DNA from: Desulfatiglandales bacterium
GTDB taxonomy: Bacteria; Desulfobacterota; DSM-4660; Desulfatiglandales; Desulfatiglandaceae
DNA: 64,000 bases
Direction of reading: 5' to 3'
Assembly (NCBI GenBank): GCA_963666345.1
Contig: OY762721.1
Coordinates: forward strand, 2,624,001-2,688,000
Position numbers and translations under genes: made by a program. A model generated the notes under the pieces. It was not told the origin of the DNA. It did no database searches and saw only the letters and a program-made list of their open reading frames with translations. The first letter of the stretch is position 1; each line of letters begins with the position of its first letter. This document shows positions 16,786 to 26,411 of this stretch, in pieces.

Positions 16786-17835
16786 ATGGGAAAGACAGGT
16801 ATTCTAAGAGACGAGAGATTCCTGGATCACAGACCCGGGCCTTTTCATCCTGAAAGCCACAAACGGCTGAAGGCCTTGTATGCCATGCTTGATGAACCTG
16901 ATATGGAAGGAAGATTTTCCGCGATACCTGCAAGGCACGCAAGTAAAGAAGAGCTTCTTTTTATTCATTCCCCTTCTTATATTGAAATGATCGGAAAAAC
17001 AGCCGGGAAACCGCACCGTTTCCTGGACCCTGATACTTCGACTTCTGAAGGCTCCTATGAGGCTGCCCTGCTTGCTGCCGGAGGATTTTGTAACTCTATT
17101 TCCATGGTGACCGCCGGTGATCTGGATAATGCCTTCGCCCTTGTGAGGCCTCCGGGCCATCATGCGGAAAATGGCAGGGCAATGGGTTTCTGCCTCTTTA
17201 ATAACGTAGCAATCGGGGCACGATACGCCCAAAGGGTTTTGGGCCTCAGGAAAATAGCCGTCGTAGACTGGGATCTGCACCATGGAAACGGGACCCAGCA
17301 CGCATTTGAGCATGACCCCACTGTCCTTTATTTTTCTACCCATCAATATCCCTACTATCCCGGAAGCGGGGCATTCGAACAGGTGGGTAAAGAAAACGGG
17401 AGGGGGTTCACGGTTAATGTGCCTCTTTCAACAGGGCATGGTGACGGAGAATACGCCGCTATATTTGAAATGATTCTCAAGCCTGTTGTGCTTGAGTTTG
17501 ACCCGGATCTCATACTGGTTTCAGCCGGTTTTGACAATTACATACGTGACCCCCTGGGTTCCATGACGGTAACGGAAAAGGGCTTTGCCGTGATGACCTC
17601 CTGTCTCATGGATATCGCTGAAAAGTGCTGTAAGGGCAGGATAGCCATGACGCTTGAAGGCGGATATAATCTGACGGGACTTAGTGAATCCGTAAAGGCG
17701 GTTTTAAATGAAATGGCAGGAGTCACTTCGACCGAAAGGCAGGCCGCTATCTGTCTTGCAGACAGCACAATGCTCAATCGTGCCTTAAACGGAGTTCAAA
17801 GGGTGCACGGATCATCGTGGAAGGTGTCTAAGTGA
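16786..17835 (+). CDS. Zn-dependent histone deacetylase-family protein
   Basis: [38 protein letters not shown]. Confidence 0.95.
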
Positions 17836-18296
17836 ATAAACATGGCCCCTTTTTCTCGACAAGACAGGCCGGTAAGGCCGACTGCCGATACATAAAGTCT
17901 CTTGGCTGTGCCGTGTTCGATCTTTACGGCCCCTACGGGGAGATCCTTTCATCATGGTTTTCTTCCGAAATCACCTATACCGTTGTGGCATCGACCCAAG
18001 AGGGAATGTCAGGATTCGCAATGCTAGCCTTAACCTCCGGGATCGCAGAACTTCTCGCAATCGCGGTGGAACCGGACATGCGGGGGATGGGTGTAGGGGG
18101 TTTTCTCATGGATGAGGTGATCAGAAGGGCAAGACAGGGTAAGGTCAAGTATTTTATGCTTCACACCGCGGTTGATAACTCGGCAGCTCAGGGTCTGTTC
18201 GAAAAATATGGCTTTGTCCGTTCAGGCATAAGAGATGATTTTTATCCGAATGGACAGGACGCCTTTATAATGACCAGGCATATCTATGATGAATGA
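17832..18296 (+). CDS. GNAT (RimI-like) acetyltransferase
   Basis: [13 protein letters not shown] acetyl-CoA motif, [23 protein letters not shown] overlap with the HDAC stop. Confidence 0.85.
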
Positions 18297-18382
18297 CAGG
18301 TGCTTCCTGACGGGGAGCAGCGATTTTATCCACGATGCCTTTGTGGAATGTGAAATAAAATCCGATAAAACAGGAGAATGTA

Positions 18383-19102
18383 ATGAAGCAGGTTGCCGAA
18401 GGTGTGTTGTTTATTCCGGGAAGAGATGATCTGATACCCGATTCCCACACATACATAATAGGGGATCCTTTATCCGGAGATCTGAGCATGATAGACCCGG
18501 GGCTCATGGGCAAGGGAAGATACAAGCTCGAATCGGTAAAGAAGCTGGTAGACACATCCCGAATAAAAAGAGTCATAATGACTCATACTCATCTGGATCA
18601 TATAGGGTGCCTTTCCGAAATCCTTGAACAACTGCCGTGGGCGGAGCTGTGGGTCCACCGCATTGAGGGGGAGGCGCTCGAACAGGGAGATGAACGTACT
18701 GTCTACGGTATGGAAATGTTTAAAAACATGTGCCAGGCGCAGTACGGAATAAAATCAGGGGCCTTCAGGTTCAATGTGGACAGAAAGCTGGAAGAGGGGG
18801 AAAGGCTTAAGATCGGGGCCATGGAATGGGATGTGATGCATATCCCGGGGCATTCATCAGGGAGTATCGCGCTTTATAAAAGTGATTCCGGGATACTTAT
18901 CCCGGGAGACGTTGTTTATGCGGACTATGCTATCGGCCGTTTCGATCTTTACGGCGCGGACGGGGACGCGTTGAAGGGATCACTTAAGAGACTTGCCGGA
19001 CTGGACGTGAAAATCCTTCTCCCGGGGCATAATGAGATTGCTCATGATCTGCCTCCGGGATATATTTCCGAGACTCTGAGGCAATGGGAGCCGTATCTCT
19101 AG
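18383..19102 (+). CDS. Metallo-beta-lactamase-fold hydrolase
   Basis: THTHLDHIG, PGHS, GD, PGH. Confidence 0.9.
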   Translation: MKQVAEGVLFIPGRDDLIPDSHTYIIGDPLSGDLSMIDPGLMGKGRYKLESVKKLVDTSRIKRVIMTHTHLDHIGCLSEILEQLPWAELWVHRIEGEALEQGDERTVYGMEMFKNMCQAQYGIKSGAFRFNVDRKLEEGERLKIGAMEWDVMHIPGHSSGSIALYKSDSGILIPGDVVYADYAIGRFDLYGADGDALKGSLKRLAGLDVKILLPGHNEIAHDLPPGYISETLRQWEPYL

Positions 19103-19216
19103 CCTTCATCCGTAAATGGCCCTTTTGTCCGATATCAAAGGCAACCGATCGGAGAAGGATAAGACTGTTCAGCTTTTGATTTCCTGATGGATGTTAAACC
19201 GTAATTGTGGACAGGG

Positions 19217-20695
19217 TCATATTTTACGGTAGTGCACAAATCTTTCCACTTCCATCTTGAGCCAATCGGGCCAGAAGGCCTCGTCAATCGGGTAGCTTGC
19301 GTCCAGGGCCTGAAACGATCCCTCGCCCGCCACCTTTTTTATCCTTTCCTGGGTGTTGTACTTTACCTCGTCGACACCCACCAGTTTTGCCACGGCATGA
19401 TTGATTTCATCCAGGTCCTTGTCATAGGGGTTATCCCCTGTAAATGCGCGTTGCGCGGCAAGTTCCTTGATGCTTTCCTCTCCCCTGTGCCATTCCTTGA
19501 ATGAGGGGAAAAACATCGGGCCGTAAGAGATCCAGAACTCTATAAACCTGGCCCCGGCGTTGTATGTAACCCAGACTGAACCTCCCTCGCTGACCGTTCC
19601 CCTTACTATGCTGTCATCGCCCATTGCGATACTTCTGCCGCTCAGCAGGGAATCTATACCCCCGAATTTGAGCCCTACTTCCTGATTTCTTGTCTGTTTG
19701 GCACCCTCCTGGAAGGTCCTGACCGCCTGGGGCAGTTTTATCAGCGCCGGATAAAGGGGCTTTTTCAGGCCTTCTGCTATGCCGACCGATACACCCCAGC
19801 CTGACTCCGGGTTTGGTATTACAATGTCCGCTTTTGAACAATTATAGTATTCAGTAAGCTCAAGGCCGAGTTCTCTCCTGATCTGAAATATCTCCTTGCC
19901 TCTGAACCTGGATGCCACGTTTCCGTAATAGACTCCCTGGAAGATGTCGGGCGCCATAGGGGATTCCTTGAGGCGCCTGGTTTCGACCCCGCCTGAAGAG
20001 CATATGGTCATTTCCGCGCCGTCATACTCGTTTTCGGTAATTCCGTGCAGCCTTCTGTGAGAGCATGACTCCGAGCTGGCAATGAACATCCCGTCTATCG
20101 TGGCGTAACAGAAAGGCTCAAAGGCCTTTTCATCGTTAAGGGCCAGCAGGTAGACTTCTTTTCCCCTGTGCAGAAGACAGGTTATGGCAAAGGTTGCCCT
20201 GCCCTTTAGCCTTTCCAGAAGTCTGTGGCCCGCGGAAAAGACGATTCCTTCCTCTTCCAGGTACTTGTGAAAAAGGGCACCCACTATCTCGGTCTTATTA
20301 TCGGTCTGGATGCTGTATTCCGGTTCAATCTCGGCCCTGAGGTCGTCATCCCTTATGAGATAACCGTCCATAGTCAGTACCATGCTTATGGAACAGGATC
20401 TTTTGGGCTTTATTTCTATCGGTTCGGCATTGATTTTTTCCGCTATCTTCCTTTTCGTATACCCGATATTGCCTATGGCGGCTACAGGTTCCAGGTCTGT
20501 AAACGTCTTTATTATGTTGTAATCTATTACCTCGGCTATCCTTCCGAGCCCCTTGTGAACATAAAGGCCCTTTGAGGTCCCGATGGCAAGGCCGGTGCAG
20601 GCCTTGCCTCTGTGCTGGCAGGCGCCGGTGGCAAGAAAGGTCTTGGAAACCAGGTCCGCATCATTATGCGCATAGGTTCCTACGATTCCGTCCAT
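19217..20695 (-). CDS. PurF-like amidophosphoribosyltransferase homolog lacking the glutaminase catalytic residues
   Basis: QHRG, ASSESC, RTF and DDSIVRGT (PRPP loop) present; N-terminus is MDGIVG instead of MCGIVG. Confidence 0.8.
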   Translation of the reverse strand: MDGIVGTYAHNDADLVSKTFLATGACQHRGKACTGLAIGTSKGLYVHKGLGRIAEVIDYNIIKTFTDLEPVAAIGNIGYTKRKIAEKINAEPIEIKPKRSCSISMVLTMDGYLIRDDDLRAEIEPEYSIQTDNKTEIVGALFHKYLEEEGIVFSAGHRLLERLKGRATFAITCLLHRGKEVYLLALNDEKAFEPFCYATIDGMFIASSESCSHRRLHGITENEYDGAEMTICSSGGVETRRLKESPMAPDIFQGVYYGNVASRFRGKEIFQIRRELGLELTEYYNCSKADIVIPNPESGWGVSVGIAEGLKKPLYPALIKLPQAVRTFQEGAKQTRNQEVGLKFGGIDSLLSGRSIAMGDDSIVRGTVSEGGSVWVTYNAGARFIEFWISYGPMFFPSFKEWHRGEESIKELAAQRAFTGDNPYDKDLDEINHAVAKLVGVDEVKYNTQERIKKVAGEGSFQALDASYPIDEAFWPDWLKMEVERFVHYRKI

Positions 20696-20832
20696 ATTTC
20701 ATGTTCCTCCGGAAATGGTGTCCCAGGATAAGGGTTTTTCAGATGAGACGGCCATGTGTTACTGTTTCACCTGGTTGACGGGCCTTGCGGCTATTCATCC
20801 AAGGAAGCGGGACCGGTTCATTCGGTCCCGAA

Positions 20833-23800
20833 CTATTTGATATCCGCATGATAACTCTGGAGCGATTTCATCTGCCCTCTTCCCCGCAGTTTGGCTACTA
20901 TGCCCCTTGCCGCTGCAAGGGCGGCCGACAGGGTGGTTATATAGGGGACCCTGTATCTTATGGCGGCCTTTCTGATATAGGAATCGTCATGCTTGCTGAG
21001 TCTTCCGCTGGGTGTGTTTATAATGAGCTGTATCTCATTGTTTTTAATGGCATCAACGATATTGGGCCGCCCTTCATGCACCTTCAGTATCTTCTCGGAC
21101 CTTACATAGTGTTCTTCCAGAAAATCATGTGTTCCTTGAGTGGCCCGTACCTTGAATCCGAGTGTGGCGAAAAGCCTTGCCACTTCTATTACAGCCGGCC
21201 TGTCCATCTCGGAAACGGTTATGAGAACCGTTCCCTCCGAAGGCAGGATCTGCTGTGCGGCCTCCTGGGCCTTCAGATATGCAAGCCCGAACTTGTCGGC
21301 CATGCCGAGTACCTCCCCTGTGGAGCGCATTTCAGGGCCGAGGATCGGGTCGACTTCGGAAAACATGTTGAAGGGAAATACCGCCTCTTTGACGCCGTAG
21401 TGGGGTATGGACTTGGGTGAGATGTCGAGTTCCGAGATTTTTTTACCGAGCATGAGCTGGGTGGCTATCCTTGCCATTGAAATATTACATACCTTTGAGA
21501 CAAGCGGCACGGTCCTGGAGGCCCTTGGGTTGGCCTCGATTATATAGACCGTGTCTTGTGCTATTGCATACTGGATGTTCATGAGCCCTACCACGTTAAG
21601 GTCTTTTGCAATCTTACGGTTATTCTCAAATATGGTGACCAGATGTTTGGCAGGGATACTTACGGGCGGGATTACGCAGGCCGAATCCCCTGAATGGATG
21701 CCGGCCAGTTCTATATGCTCCATAATAGCCGGCACAAAGGCGTCCGTGCCGTCGGCAACCGCGTCGGCTTCCACCTCGATTGCGTTTTCAAGAAACCTGT
21801 CAATGAGTATGGGGCGTTCCGGACTCACATCTACCGCGGCTGAGACATAATGCCTCAGCATCTCTTCGTCGTGAATCACCTCCATCGCCCTTCCGCCAAG
21901 CACATAGGAAGGCCTTACCATTAACGGATAACCTATGGAACCGGCCACTTCAAGGGCCTGCTCCATATTGCTTGCCATGCCCGATTCAGGCTGATTAATG
22001 CCCAGTTTTCTCATCTTTTGACGAAAACGGTCCCTGTCCTCGGCAAGGTCTATGGTATCGGGCGATGTCCCTATGATGTTTACACCCTGCTCGGCAAGCT
22101 CGGAAGCGATATTGAGCGGAGTCTGCCCTCCGAACTGGACTATGACCCCTTCAGGTTTCTCCTTTTCATATATGCTCAGGACATCTTCCACGGTCAGAGG
22201 TTCGAAATAGAGCTTGTCGGACGTGTCATAATCGGTTGATACCGTCTCAGGATTACAGTTGACCATGATGGATTCATAGCCCATATCACGAAGGGCAAAG
22301 GCCGCATGCACGCAGCAATAGTCAAATTCGATACCCTGACCTATCCTGTTGGGCCCTCCCCCGAGCACCATGATCTTTTTCCTGTCGCTTGTTTCAACCT
22401 GGTCAGGGGCGTTATATGTGGAAAAATAATATGCGGCGTTCTCTGCCCCGCTGACCGGAACAGGCTCCCATCCCTGAACAATCCCGAGGGATTTTCTTTT
22501 TTCTCTTATCTCCTTTTCCCCCTTTTGCAGGATCAAGGAGAGATAGCGATCGGAAAAACCGTCTTTTTTAGCCTTTTCAAGGAGCTGTTCAGGGATGTCC
22601 TTCCCCCTGTACGTGAGTATCTTCTCCTCCAGCTCAACCAGTTCCTTCATCTGCTCGATGAACCAGGCCTTGATGTGTGTCTTTTCATGGAGAATTTCAA
22701 CGGATGCGCCTTTTCTTAAGGCCTCATACATGATGAACTGTCTTTCGCTTGAGGGTTCCGACAAGAGGTCAAGGAGGTCATCAAGCGGTTTTTCATGGAA
22801 ATCCTTTGCAAATCCAAGCCCGTATCTGTTGATTTCAAGAGAGCGAATCGCCTTTTGAAAGGACTCCTTGTAGGTCTTCCCGATACTCATGACCTCGCCT
22901 ACGGCACGCATCTGGGTCCCCAGTTTATCCTCTGCGCCCTCGAACTTTTCAAAGGCCCAGCGGGCGAATTTCACTACGACATAATCTCCCCATGGCTCAT
23001 ATTTTTCCAGGGTCCCCTCTTTCCAGTAGGGGATTTCATCCAGCGTGAGTCCCCCCGCCAGAAGAGAGGAGACCAGCGCTATCGGGAATCCGGTGGCCTT
23101 TGACGCCAGGGCTGACGACCGGGATGTCCTGGGATTTATCTCGATTACCACCACACGGTCGGTCTTTGGATCGTGGGCGAACTGGATGTTGGTCCCGCCG
23201 ATGACCTTTATCGCCTCTACAATGTCGTAGGAATATTTCTGAAGACGTTTCTGCAGCTCAGGAGCGATCGTAAGCATAGGCGCCGTGCAGAAGGAATCTC
23301 CGGTGTGAACCCCCATGGCATCGACGTTTTCAATGAAACAGACGGTAATCATCTGGTTCTTGGAATCCCTTACGACTTCAAGCTCCAGTTCTTCCCAACC
23401 CAGGACGGATTCTTCCACAAGGACCTGACCGACAAGACTGGCGGCAAGGCCTCTTCCCGCAACCGTTCTCAGCTCCTCAACATTATATACCAGACCGCCT
23501 CCCGTACCTCCCATGGTATAGGCCGGCCTGATTACAACTGGATAGCCCAGCTGATCGGCTATCTTTTCCGTTTCCTCCACTGAGAAGGCAGGCTCGCTTT
23601 TGGGCATATCGATCCCTAGACCGTTCATCGTCTCTTTGAATGCGATCCTGTCTTCACCCCTCTCAATGGCATCTATCTCAACGCCTATGACCTTGACGCC
23701 GTGCTTTTCGAGCACTCCTCTTCGGGCCAGCTCAGAGGAAAGATTAAGGCCAGACTGTCCCCCCAGGTTCGGGAGGATCGCGTCCGGTTTTTCCTTTTCA

Positions 23801-24033
23801 ATGATTTCCGTGATGGTATCCGCATTGAGCGGCTCTATGTAGGTGGCGTCAGCAGTATCCGGATCGGTCATAATTGTTGCGGGGTTTGAATTTACCAGCA
23901 CTATTTCATACCCAAGCTTTTTTAAGGCCTTGCAGGCCTGAGTGCCTGAATAATCAAACTCGCAGGCCTGTCCTATAACTATGGGCCCCGAGCCTATAAT
24001 CATAACCTTATTGATATCGGTACGTTTTGGCAT
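20833..24033 (-). CDS. carB: Carbamoyl-phosphate synthase large subunit
   Basis: MPKRTDI..GSGPIVIGQACEFDYSG, two ATP-grasp halves, MGS domain. Confidence 0.97.
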   Translation of the reverse strand: MPKRTDINKVMIIGSGPIVIGQACEFDYSGTQACKALKKLGYEIVLVNSNPATIMTDPDTADATYIEPLNADTITEIIEKEKPDAILPNLGGQSGLNLSSELARRGVLEKHGVKVIGVEIDAIERGEDRIAFKETMNGLGIDMPKSEPAFSVEETEKIADQLGYPVVIRPAYTMGGTGGGLVYNVEELRTVAGRGLAASLVGQVLVEESVLGWEELELEVVRDSKNQMITVCFIENVDAMGVHTGDSFCTAPMLTIAPELQKRLQKYSYDIVEAIKVIGGTNIQFAHDPKTDRVVVIEINPRTSRSSALASKATGFPIALVSSLLAGGLTLDEIPYWKEGTLEKYEPWGDYVVVKFARWAFEKFEGAEDKLGTQMRAVGEVMSIGKTYKESFQKAIRSLEINRYGLGFAKDFHEKPLDDLLDLLSEPSSERQFIMYEALRKGASVEILHEKTHIKAWFIEQMKELVELEEKILTYRGKDIPEQLLEKAKKDGFSDRYLSLILQKGEKEIREKRKSLGIVQGWEPVPVSGAENAAYYFSTYNAPDQVETSDRKKIMVLGGGPNRIGQGIEFDYCCVHAAFALRDMGYESIMVNCNPETVSTDYDTSDKLYFEPLTVEDVLSIYEKEKPEGVIVQFGGQTPLNIASELAEQGVNIIGTSPDTIDLAEDRDRFRQKMRKLGINQPESGMASNMEQALEVAGSIGYPLMVRPSYVLGGRAMEVIHDEEMLRHYVSAAVDVSPERPILIDRFLENAIEVEADAVADGTDAFVPAIMEHIELAGIHSGDSACVIPPVSIPAKHLVTIFENNRKIAKDLNVVGLMNIQYAIAQDTVYIIEANPRASRTVPLVSKVCNISMARIATQLMLGKKISELDISPKSIPHYGVKEAVFPFNMFSEVDPILGPEMRSTGEVLGMADKFGLAYLKAQEAAQQILPSEGTVLITVSEMDRPAVIEVARLFATLGFKVRATQGTHDFLEEHYVRSEKILKVHEGRPNIVDAIKNNEIQLIINTPSGRLSKHDDSYIRKAAIRYRVPYITTLSAALAAARGIVAKLRGRGQMKSLQSYHADIK

Positions 24034-24442
24034 GAGTCTCTCCTTAGCTGTGATTAATGTCCAAAGGCATCAAAGGCCTCCGCCTGCCGCCTCTTGATAA
24101 GGACTATATGAATTCGGAATTAAACCGTGTCCGCCGTCAATATCTCTTTTCGTGAAAACATGCTTATACAGGAAGCGGCAAGCGGTCATGGCACATATGA
24201 AAATGATGTGGTTTGTTTTACAGAGAAAGGCGACAGACCATGTGCCTCCGCAAGTCCCGGCCTAGGTGGGCGCAAGTGGTAAAACAATACAGTCGCCGAA
24301 ACTATAGAGGAGCACCGGTTTTGTGTCAAGAGGAAACTAGGCCGATTTACATGGGGTGTAACTAACTGAGAATATATGATATTCAGACATCGACATGCCT
24401 TTTTTTAAATCCCATCTTCCAAAGAGAGGCCATCGGATCGCT

Positions 24443-24946
24443 TCAGCCGGCGGAATTGCCGTGGGGAATATCTTCAAAGGATTTTACCCCCCCTTCCAGG
24501 AATTCCTTTAAGACCCTTATATGCCTTTTTTCTTCATCGATAATGGTTTCAATGCAGTTGAAGGCCTCGGTGCCGTTAATAAATGAGCATAACATCTCGT
24601 AAAAGATCACCGTATCCTTTTCAAATTCGATTGCCTTCTCCAGTATCTCCTCAACCCGGTCCAGGCTGTGAAGGTCGTCGTCCTCAAGCGAAAAGGCCTG
24701 CCCCCCCATTACCGCGCCTAACATCTCCCGGCCGAGCCTGTCGATCCGCTCATCCTGAGTTTGCTCATTAAACTCCTTGCAGAGTCTGTTGAAGACGGTC
24801 GCGTGCTCGGCCTCATCATCGGCTAGCCACTTTAAAAGGGATGCAAGCTCCGGGTTTGATGCCCTGCTTAAAGCCTCCCTGTAGATCCTTTCACCGTTTT
24901 CCTCAATCTGTACGGCAAAATCTATGATCTCTTTGATCGTAAACAT
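24443..24946 (-). CDS. Ferritin/rubrerythrin-like protein
   Basis: E..E..Y, LADDEAEH, AIEFEKDTVIFY, IIDEEKRH diiron pattern; ATG at 24946 preferred as start. Confidence 0.85.
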   Translation of the reverse strand: MFTIKEIIDFAVQIEENGERIYREALSRASNPELASLLKWLADDEAEHATVFNRLCKEFNEQTQDERIDRLGREMLGAVMGGQAFSLEDDDLHSLDRVEEILEKAIEFEKDTVIFYEMLCSFINGTEAFNCIETIIDEEKRHIRVLKEFLEGGVKSFEDIPHGNSAG

Positions 24947-25113
24947 AATTGCAGTTGTTCCGTAGAATAATATGTATGCTAATGTTAAAATGCTAAATAT
25001 CAACAATTTAATATAGTATTTATCAATAAAATATGAAAGAAAAAAATCAGGAGCAGTTGATATCCTGATGAAGGTTTTTAATTGGGAAGTGTCTGCGGAA
25101 AGGCCTGCAAAAC

Positions 25114-25141
25114 AAAAAAGGCGGCCCAGAGGCCGCCTTTT
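25114..25141 (-). terminator. Terminator after hsp20
   Basis: AAAAGGCGGCC-CAGA-GGCCGCCTTTT perfect stem with A/T tails. Confidence 0.85.
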
Positions 25142-25169
25142 GGTTTAATAATTTCAGGTAGTTGAATTA

Positions 25170-25613
25170 TTAGTTAACGCTTATTTTCTTTGGTTCCTTC
25201 TCTTTAGGTTTCGGTATTTCTATTGTCAGTACACCGTCCTTGAACTCTGCATTTATCATGTCCGGATCAAGGCCCTCAGGGAGCGAAAAAGACCTGTTGA
25301 ATCTGCCGTAGGCACGCTCTTTTTTATAGAAGTTTTCCTCTTTCACCTCATTTTCATATGACCTTTCACCACTCAGGGTAAGTACGCCCTCTTTCACATC
25401 CACGTTAACATCCTTTTTGTCAACACCCGGAAGCTCGGCCTTTATGGTGGTTTTTCCATCCTTTTCGAATATATCAACCGCCGGAGTCCAGTTCCCGATT
25501 CCGGATTCGTCCTTAACCCCTATACGTGGAAAAAAGGTCGTCCCGAATATATCGTTCATTCGGTCTGAAAATAGATCCATCTCTCTCATGGGTTTAAATC
25601 TCACAAGGTTCAT
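25170..25613 (-). CDS. Hsp20/alpha-crystallin small heat shock protein
   Basis: PAVDIFE, AELPGV, ERAYGRFNRSFSLP, A.FKDGVLTI.IPK. Confidence 0.95.
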   Translation of the reverse strand: MNLVRFKPMREMDLFSDRMNDIFGTTFFPRIGVKDESGIGNWTPAVDIFEKDGKTTIKAELPGVDKKDVNVDVKEGVLTLSGERSYENEVKEENFYKKERAYGRFNRSFSLPEGLDPDMINAEFKDGVLTIEIPKPKEKEPKKISVN

Positions 25614-25796
25614 TTCTGATACCTCCTTTCCGTGATATCAAATAATGTTTATAATCGATTCTCCGTGCTCAAAAAATAATTACGAGCGTTATGATGTCAA
25701 GGGGCCGGCTATTATAAATGTACATTATTTATATTTGACAAAAAAGAATAGTAATGTAAACATCAACTCCTTGGATTTAGCTGTCGGGAGGAGATA

Positions 25797-26411
25797 ATGG
25801 ATATAATCCGTAATGGAAAATATAATAAAGATGGTCCGGAAGGGGGTTGTTTTTCATCCAGCCTCAGGGGAAAGCAATCCGTCAGGGCTACCTTCAGGCT
25901 GTCGAAAAGGGCCATAGACATCCTAAGCCTTGTGTCCAGTCATTTGAAAATAAAACAAAAATCCCTCTTTGATCACCTTTTTGATGATCCTGTGACCATG
26001 GACTATCTGGCGCAAGGCATCGAAATAGGGGATTTCATAGAACTTGACCGGGTGCAGAAGACATATGTCATCAGCAGGAAGACTCTTTCCTGTCTCGATA
26101 ATGCCTCCAGATCCTTTGATTCTCCCAGAGACGCCCTTGTCGAATATGCGGTTTATCGTCTTCTGCCGGTTATCAAAGAAGAGCGTGAAAAACAGTGGAA
26201 GCGAAAACAGGTATTAAGCGATATTAATCTTTACCTCAAAAAGGGGATGGATATCCTGCATAAGAGCAGAGAGGCCCTGGGAGAAGATGATCCTCTATGC
26301 CTTAGCCTCGAAAAATTGATTCTCGGCCTTGATAATGCATGCTCCGAGATGGTGGATTTTGTCGAAAAAGGCAGTATAATCGAAACATTTGACAAGGAAG
26401 GCGATAAATGA
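25797..26411 (+). CDS. Hypothetical protein, possibly a tandem ribbon-helix-helix DNA-binding protein
   Basis: GGGAGGAG RBS; two beta-helix-helix-like segments (VRATFRLS..., VQKTYVIS...). Confidence 0.6.
   Translation: MDIIRNGKYNKDGPEGGCFSSSLRGKQSVRATFRLSKRAIDILSLVSSHLKIKQKSLFDHLFDDPVTMDYLAQGIEIGDFIELDRVQKTYVISRKTLSCLDNASRSFDSPRDALVEYAVYRLLPVIKEEREKQWKRKQVLSDINLYLKKGMDILHKSREALGEDDPLCLSLEKLILGLDNACSEMVDFVEKGSIIETFDKEGDK

Follow-up and report, generated by a model that had tools for sequence, protein, structure and literature searches.

Why should a bacterium that possesses a complete set of carA, carB and purF genes carry, elsewhere on the same chromosome, a second carB gene followed by a purF relative whose product has lost the catalytic cysteine? 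We met this arrangement in a stretch of 64,000 nucleotides from a Desulfatiglandales bacterium, an organism of the sulfate-reducer type (assembly GCA_963666345.1, contig OY762721.1, positions 2,624,001 to 2,688,000 of the forward strand), which we call the window and from whose first letter positions are counted below. The answer that we favour, at a probability of roughly 0.4, is that the second CarB (CarB2) and the PurF-like protein (PurF′) constitute an ammonium-using pair, parallel to the glutamine-dependent carA-carB1-purF set. It builds on the gene order, the fold, the loss of the glutamine site, the retention of the site for phosphoribosyl pyrophosphate (PRPP), the purifying selection and the phyletic patterns that we observed. 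The two genes concerned are as follows.

20833..24033, minus strand: carB2, a stand-alone second large subunit of carbamoyl-phosphate synthase (CPS), read from 24033 to 20833, 1066 aa (NF003671, TIGR01369).
19217..20695, minus strand: a Cys-less PurF paralog of the PurF′ type, here called the ‘MDG’ family, read from 20695 to 19217, 492 aa (TIGR01134 below its cut-off, AlphaFold2 (AF2)/Foldseek, relatives).

The PurF-like gene lies downstream of carB2 across a spacer of 137 nt (20696-20832), and the coordinates of the open reading frames (ORFs) agree with the same-strand arrangement, 137 bp apart, that had been described in a first reading made from the letters alone (the sequence-only reading). 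An assembly contig from run X2, which is probably the source run, covers 19000-24400 with 0 differences, and a second study (X4) contains near-identical pieces within both genes.

Does the PurF-like protein retain any means of hydrolysing glutamine? We compared its residues with those of Bacillus subtilis PurF (1ao0) in a phmmer alignment (E 7e-28). The N-terminus reads MDGIVG where PurF has CG(V/I)xG, IGNIGYTK stands for IGHVRYAT, LTMDGYL for LAHNGNL and QTDNKTE for QTSSDTE, while DDSIVRGT and RTF of the phosphoribosyltransferase (PRTase) part are retained; every substitution that the sequence-only reading had listed for the glutaminase site and the PRTase part is seen in this alignment. Its statement that the Fe-S cysteines are missing also holds at the two such positions that the alignment covers, neither of which has a Cys (PDIFQG, FFPSFK). 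The changes amount to Cys1 to Asp, Arg73 to Gly78, Asn101-Gly102 to Asp110-Gly111 and Asp127 to Lys134, where Arg73, Asn101-Gly102 and Asp127 (E. coli numbering) are the glutamine-site residues of PurF. No in-frame upstream start able to supply a Cys was found for this gene and, because methionine aminopeptidase does not cleave Met ahead of Asp, the protein has no free N-terminal nucleophile. On the phosphoribosyltransferase side, R326-T-F, K343, S298-G299 and Y79 (the Tyr74 equivalent) are retained, and in the PRPP loop GTT has become GTV.

The overall likeness to PurF is low by profile and high by structure. The protein reaches 124.9 bits on TIGR01134, where the cut-off is 350 and the true purF of the same genome, to whose product it is 25% identical (23-25% to PurFs overall), scores 521; its only Pfam match is a weak one to GATase_6 (20.7 bits), with none to Pribosyltran, and the ESM Atlas returned only generic ‘amidophosphoribosyltransferase’ and ‘CarB’ clusters. 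By the N-terminal Cys, the glutamine-site residues and the 350-bit cut-off, it stands outside PurF as TIGR01134 defines it. The AF2 model, however, is confident (pLDDT 94.3, pTM 0.91) apart from residues ~321-340, which correspond to the flexible loop of PurF, and it predicts the two-domain arrangement of an N-terminal nucleophile (Ntn) domain and a type-I PRTase with PRPP loop and flexible loop. The best Foldseek match in the PDB was 1ao0 (E 3.5e-35, TM 0.79/0.85), followed by 1gph, 6lbp and 1ecb (TM to 1ao0, 1ecb and 6lbp 0.79-0.85), with GlmS and AsnB coming later and through the N-domain only. Compared with PurF (TIGR01134; 1AO0, 1GPH, 1ECB, 6LBP), the protein thus shares the two-domain fold, DDSIVRG, RTF, Lys343 and the Tyr74 equivalent, and differs in lacking Cys1 and the Fe-S cysteines at the aligned positions, in the replacement of Arg73, Asn101 and Asp127, in GTT to GTV, in its sub-cut-off score and in its C-terminal 90 residues, which are family-specific.

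Is this loss an accident of one strain, or a property of a family? A search for related loci returned 114 relatives of the PurF-like gene, the best 80 of which were analysed (59-79% identical; metagenome-assembled genome labels Desulfatiglandales, Desulfobacterales/Desulfobacteraceae, Syntrophus, Thermodesulfobacteriota and similar). The N-terminus was included in 77 of the 80 loci, and all 77 relatives begin with [M/V/L]-D-G, Asp following the start codon without exception; all 77 frames are open, 76 of them at 489-499 aa and one (L016) at 482 aa. In many relatives a carB stop codon lies in frame a few codons 5′ of the PurF-like start, so that in these a hidden Cys-bearing leader is impossible. 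Six pairwise comparisons gave saturated synonymous differences (pS 0.72-0.85) against pN values of only 0.14-0.27, which indicates that the frame is under strong purifying selection. In the protein database, the scoring of 8000 candidates yielded 776 relatives; identity is 75-80% for the top 120, which their sources name ‘amidophosphoribosyltransferase’ or ‘hypothetical protein’. The earlier argument that an intact 492-aa frame speaks against decay is therefore upheld by pN being far below pS and by Asp in 77 of 77 relatives, and the same constancy makes the loss of the glutaminase site clade-wide rather than peculiar to one strain. Conservation extends across the former pocket (Asp2, GN.GY.K, T.DGYL, T.N.TE), whose conserved lining is Asp2, Asn76, Asp110 and Lys134, and across the PRTase part (IPNPESGWG, IKLPQA.RTFQE, EVGLKFGG, MGDDSIVRG.VS).

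How old might the family be? An exhaustive representative search with the PurF-like query gave 2594 matches at E<=0.001 and just 33 at E<=1e-30, and many of the nearest matches outside the family start with MSG, MAG, MPG, MGG, MKG or MDG, not MCG. In a midpoint-rooted FastTree phylogeny of 133 PurF-type proteins, whose rows were the best matches to the query, the query falls in a clade of 32 rows (support 100) with no member bearing Cys at the nucleophile position, whereas the remaining 101 rows are mostly Cys-bearing. We tabulated the sites for the query, 20 sampled clade members and 10 canonical PurFs. First, Val, Ile or Met takes the place of the final Thr of DDSIVRGTT in the query and 20/20 members. 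Second, Asn101 is replaced by Asp in the query and 19/20 (Gly in P0130). Third, Asp127 is replaced in the query and 18/20 (Asp is retained in P0144 and P0151). Arg-Thr-Phe/Tyr, Lys343 and D/E-D-S are retained in 19/20, with P0239 having Lys-Ser-Phe in place of Arg-Thr-Phe, and the positions changed in the clade are occupied by Asn, Asp and Thr in all ten canonical PurFs.

A scan of metagenomes for the signature [GTC][DE]DSIV[RK]G[TGS][VI] found 395 stretches, 379 of them relatives, from which 80 loci were retained. These distant Cys-less relatives lie largely on archaeal-type contigs (PolD, Orc1, TBP, Kae1); none of the 80 loci has carB nearby, purL-purQ immediately precedes the gene in four, purD is close to it in two, and one adjoins a Cys-type PurF. 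The tree and the site table indicate that the protein belongs to an old Cys-less clade of the PurF′ type rather than being a PurF that was disabled recently. Position 1 is likewise Ser or Gly in several proteins from the canonical side of the tree (P0217, P0249, P0254, P0231, P0178 and P0251), among which P0217 reaches 480 bits on TIGR01134 despite lacking Cys1; PurFs seem to have lost the nucleophile more than once.

What, then, is the carB gene that precedes it? The 1066-aa ORF had been called carB from its letters, and a match to NF003671 over positions 1-1057 of 1058 at 1520.5 bits (cut-off 599) leaves no doubt of this, with 1374.9 bits on TIGR01369 and Pfam matches to CPSase_L_D1, D2 and D3 and an MGS-like domain. 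In this respect it resembles the large subunit of ordinary CarAB (NF003671, TIGR01368), being full-length with both ATP-grasp halves and the oligomerisation and MGS-like allosteric domains; it differs in having no adjacent carA, in being only 52% identical to the carA-linked carB1 of the same genome and in belonging to a separate type. Among the 251 genomes of our phylum sample, carB2-type genes (70-83% identity) occur in at least 90, and the carB1 type forms a separate band at 51-56%; these bands indicate that carB2 is a separate, slowly evolving CarB type. There is one carA per genome, always adjoining carB1 (this genome and 5/5 others checked), and no glutaminase gene was seen among the flanking ORFs examined at 19 carB2 loci in genomes without an MDG protein, in agreement with the proposal that the carB of the window is of a type without an adjacent glutaminase gene. 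A single locus, L106 (G166:C1:1499000-1508000), has carA, two small genes, carB2 and a carB1-type gene in one same-strand row.

Two genomes of one family, G013 and G218 (98% and 93% complete), have carB2 as their sole carB (loci L098, L099, L189 and L190), and no carA was found in either at E<=1e-10. In both, pyrB scores above its cut-off, another carbamoyltransferase is encoded as well, and a canonical purF is present without carB1 in front of it. They are candidates for organisms in which a CarA-independent CPS would be the sole source of carbamoyl phosphate.

The host of the window is not such an organism. If the sequence-only reading left room for a genome without carA or a canonical purF, that room is now closed: the sole carA of the genome does lie outside the window, as had been noted, at G000:C1:1205838-1206950, and stands with a canonical purF in an operon with carB1. 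The full order is hisH-hisF-carA-carB1-purF on one strand of the same chromosome (G000:C1:1201085-1208390, at ~1.20 Mb and 1.4 Mb from the window), with carA at 509 bits, carB1 at 1705 bits and purF at 521 bits. Because this operon is complete, the pair in the window is an extra paralogous set and not the sole route. The idea of an ammonia-fed carB/PurF pair therefore has to be placed beside a canonical carA-carB1-purF set in the same cell. In five other genomes bearing the PurF-like gene we found a single canonical purF (520-539 bits) and a single carA apiece, with a carB1 of ~1700 bits. The three genes adjoin one another on one contig in four of these genomes; in G201, carA-carB1 and purF are on different contigs. 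In four of the five, carB2 is present too. As for the surroundings of the canonical operon, glnD (PII uridylyltransferase, 570 bits) lies ~1.5 kb away on the opposite strand, and a PhoR/PhoB-like pair lies downstream.

How closely do carB2 and the PurF-like gene travel together? We counted over the 68 loci whose upstream flank was 600 nt or longer, the fetched flank being at most 6 kb. In 36 of them the gene immediately preceding on the same strand is carB2, at a distance of 11-510 nt and, in many cases, of just 11-20 nt. The slot is not reserved for the MDG family. A divergent Cys-type PurF paralog is directly downstream of carB2 in 4 of the 19 non-MDG loci (L091, L094, L100 and L103), and a Gly-type paralog is directly upstream in one (L107). 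These paralogs score 298-316 bits on TIGR01134, again below the cut-off, and elsewhere in four of the five genomes there is a canonical purF scoring 497 bits or more; in G184, the remaining one, only a 162-position piece at 189 bits was seen. To judge from these loci, then, a second PurF-type gene has repeatedly come to occupy the slot beside carB2, drawn from at least two separate lineages of PurF. We considered whether the MDG gene arose by recent duplication of a carB-linked purF and rejected this, since the carB2-linked Cys-type paralogs fall on the canonical side of the tree, away from the query. In L100, a gene for an NrpR-type nitrogen repressor follows the PurF paralog. A complex prediction restricted to residues 1-500 of CarB2 with the full PurF-like protein, on alignments of 31 rows each, gave a score of 0.00 and no verdict, which weighs neither for nor against an interaction.

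Other neighbours of the PurF-like gene each recur in a few loci at most and include rubrerythrin-like, metallo-beta-lactamase, TRAP transporter, Lon-like protease and sigma-54 activator genes, among others; we sought a functional clue in them and discarded it, since they vary and look like inherited local synteny. In three loci without carB2 (L040, L074 and L077) a rubrerythrin-like gene is directly 5′ of the PurF-like gene, a sign that the order may once have been rubrerythrin-carB2-PurF′, with carB2 since lost or moved. In the window itself, a rubrerythrin/ferritin-like gene (24443-25006, minus strand) lies just upstream of carB2, and genes of the histone-deacetylase family, a GNAT acetyltransferase and a metallo-beta-lactamase fold (16786-19102, plus strand) converge on the PurF-like gene; the metallo-beta-lactamase neighbour is seen again in a few related loci.

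Are the two genes expressed as a unit? Three signals were located at the locus.

24301..24329, minus strand: a sigma-70-type promoter-like site, TTGACA-17-TATAGT, upstream of carB2 (11/12 matches).
20808..20830, minus strand: a GC-rich hairpin with an 8-bp stem and without a T tract, just past the carB2 stop (inverted-repeat search, minimum free energy (MFE) structure).
20706..20710, minus strand: a GGAGG ribosome-binding site, 10 nt 5′ of the PurF-like ATG (read from the sequence).

When 49 upstream regions of carB2 were aligned, at least 80% retained CTTGAC and T..A.T of the promoter-like site (24329-24301); no promoter-like site was found in the spacer between carB2 and the PurF-like gene, and the terminator scan called no terminator there. 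Transcription of the two genes as a unit from the carB2 promoter is probable. In this genome the leader of carB2 is predicted at ~260 nt (24034-24300), and most relatives have a much shorter distance from promoter to start. The hairpin that the sequence-only reading had proposed as a modulator of read-through is exactly where it was said to be, an exact inverted repeat (CGGGACCG-7 nt-CGGTCCCG) occurring once in the window, where 0 were expected, and present in the MFE structure. With no T tract after it, it was not called by the terminator scan, and as a conserved control element it has to be abandoned: the spacers of most relatives, at 11-40 nt, are too short to hold it, and it is private to the long spacer of this genome. 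A search of 18800-25800 against Rfam (E<=1) gave only sub-threshold matches near 25040-25190, none beside carB2 or the PurF-like gene. Just one RNA run (marine-sediment metatranscriptome contigs; share of the stretch 0.06) contained any of this DNA, namely a 185-nt contig identical to carB2 and nothing usable for the PurF-like gene, which is evidence neither of expression nor of co-transcription.

Both halves of the arrangement have separate precedents. In Crenarchaeota, Cys-less PurF′ paralogs near purF/pur genes were proposed to be NH3-dependent PRPP aminotransferases (Brown et al. 2011, Biol Direct, PMC3261824), and the same paper points out that E. coli PurF can go on using NH3 when it lacks Cys1. 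The crenarchaeal PurF′ resembles the MDG protein as an N-terminal-Cys-less paralog coexisting with a true PurF, and many metagenome relatives of the query's clade lie on archaeal-type contigs; it differs in having Ala or Val at position 1 and in standing near purF/pur genes, whereas the MDG family has Met-Asp, is bacterial (Thermodesulfobacteriota) and follows carB2; the likeness is one of description. In Bacteroides thetaiotaomicron, a lone CarB2 (BT3866) is reported to matter when ammonium is available, and carAB only when it is not; from these genetics an ammonium-dependent CPS was proposed (Liu et al. 2021, Cell Rep, PMC8121099). There, as in the genome of the window, the cell has a full carAB and also a second carB lacking a glutaminase partner; the phylum is different, the text of PMC8121099 has 0 mentions of purF, and the likeness is again one of description. 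From its context and this precedent, ammonium dependence of our carB2 is a fair inference.

How would such a pair work? On the ammonium reading, the lone CarB2 would make carbamoyl phosphate from free ammonium without CarA, and the PurF-like protein would be a competent phosphoribosyltransferase that makes phosphoribosylamine (PRA) from PRPP and free NH3. The former glutaminase pocket (Asp2, Asn76, Asp110 and Lys134) would carry out no glutamine hydrolysis and may instead take NH4+ and pass NH3 through the PurF channel. Both genes would be transcribed jointly from the conserved promoter upstream of carB2, and the pair would save the ATP cost of glutamine synthesis when ammonium is plentiful. 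The retained PRTase machinery, the operon slot and the hypothesis already in print all agree with a PRA synthase that depends on NH3.

Several points weigh against this reading. The linkage with carB expected by the sequence-only reading is real in the 36 of 68 loci and is not obligate: 30 of the 68 have no carB in the fetched upstream flank (one of these, L017, has carB downstream instead), two have it 3.8 and 5.6 kb upstream, and no carB2 was seen in the fifth PurF-like genome (85% complete). Since carB2 occurs in at least 90 of the 251 genomes and the PurF-like gene in only seven, carB2 needs no PurF-like gene, and the two do not form an obligate module. Because some carB2 genes pair with a Cys-type, presumably glutamine-using PurF, pairing alone implies no use of ammonia, and the carA-less G013 and G218 are draft assemblies. 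What would be gained by a separate isozyme is unclear, since canonical PurF itself can use NH3. Far from being relaxed, the dead pocket is under strong conservation and has acquired new charged residues, a pattern that a new ligand would explain no less well than a passive inlet for NH3. Because the last Thr of the PRPP loop is replaced by Val, Ile or Met throughout the clade, substrate handling may differ from that of PurF. Finally, the parallel with Bacteroides CarB2 is one of description, and ammonium use by the MDG family and by this carB2 is a prediction.

Might the protein make no PRA at all? It could be a regulatory pseudoenzyme that binds PRPP or nucleotides and tunes CarB2 or, in mixed oligomers, canonical PurF, and would thereby couple the supply of purine precursors with that of pyrimidine/arginine precursors. 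The protein as a whole is very strongly conserved, including its surface-rich C-terminal region with family-specific motifs, yet its glutaminase residues are gone, as might be expected of a regulator; its gene follows carB2 in 36 of 68 loci, a canonical PurF is always present too (this genome and 5/5 others), and the last Thr of the PRPP loop is altered. Herpesviruses offer a parallel, in that their catalytically dead amidotransferase homologues act through partners (PMC7605207). However, a mere sensor would not need the full set of catalytic PRTase residues and the flexible loop, all of which are kept, and the partnership is loose: carB2 mostly occurs without the PurF-like gene (at least 90 against seven of 251 genomes), 30 of 68 loci are without carB in the fetched upstream flank, and distant members of the clade adjoin purL-purQ or purD, not carB. 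We regard a purely regulatory role as unlikely.

A second alternative takes the remodelled pocket as its starting point. The residues of the former pocket were not left to drift but swapped for a new, invariant, charge-inverted set, with Asn101 to Asp common to the query and the sampled clade except P0130 (Gly) and Asp127 lost except in P0144 and P0151, and the single branch with support of 100 points to an old, stable and distinct function. The protein might thus be a neofunctionalised enzyme whose pocket takes nitrogen from a donor other than glutamine, or whose PRTase uses a nucleophile other than NH3, giving a product that is not the PRA of PurF or is made differently. Other Ntn-amidotransferase homologues gained new chemistry after the loss of Cys1, beta-lactam synthetase, which derives from AsnB, being one of them. 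On the other hand, no gene of an unusual pathway recurs nearby, the neighbours apart from carB2 being variable, and the two sites of PurF are joined only by a narrow NH3 channel of ~20 A (PMC7953260), which would not let a bulkier nucleophile through from the old pocket. New chemistry of this kind appears doubtful to us.

One special form of it deserves mention, namely that the former pocket is a new catalytic site that frees NH3 from a donor other than glutamine, the carbamate or carbamoyl phosphate of CarB2 being the obvious candidate. CarB2 and PurF′ together would in that case turn ammonium and bicarbonate into phosphoribosylamine at the expense of ATP. We know of no amidotransferase with such a logic of nitrogen delivery, and we hold this form to be very improbable.

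That the gene is a decaying or strain-specific broken purF, or carries a sequencing error at the Cys codon, could be argued from the sub-cut-off TIGR01134 score and from one internal stop each in two whole-genome relatives (G034 and G171), but is refuted by 77 loci with intact frames of 482-500 aa and Asp in every one, by saturated synonymous sites with pN of 0.14-0.27, by the 776 database relatives (top 120 at 75-80% identity) and by the agreement of a second assembly contig, and is next to inconceivable.

Searches of open-access papers and bioRxiv found no published account of a bacterial Cys-less PurF beside carB or of the MDG family, and none of the literature found there on a second carB in Desulfo-bacteria or on NH3-dependent PRA synthases describes the family. 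Cys-less PurF paralogs and lone CarB2 proteins are each already in print; no description of their tandem arrangement turned up in these searches. Two questions meet at this locus: whether bacteria have ammonium-dependent carbamoyl-phosphate synthases, for which the case so far is a genetic inference from Bacteroides CarB2, and what role is played by the Cys-less PurF paralogs noted in archaea in 2011. The presence of carB2-PurF′ and carA-carB1-purF in one genome provides a clean pair of gene sets to compare. If the ammonium reading fails, the family would still be a well-conserved, predicted PRPP-binding protein without an assigned role that merits a structure. If it is true, anaerobes short of energy in sediments rich in ammonium would avoid glutamine and the ATP spent on it, the bypass would cover pyrimidine/arginine and purine precursors alike, and models of nitrogen metabolism that label genes simply as ‘carB’ or ‘purF’ would need a second category.

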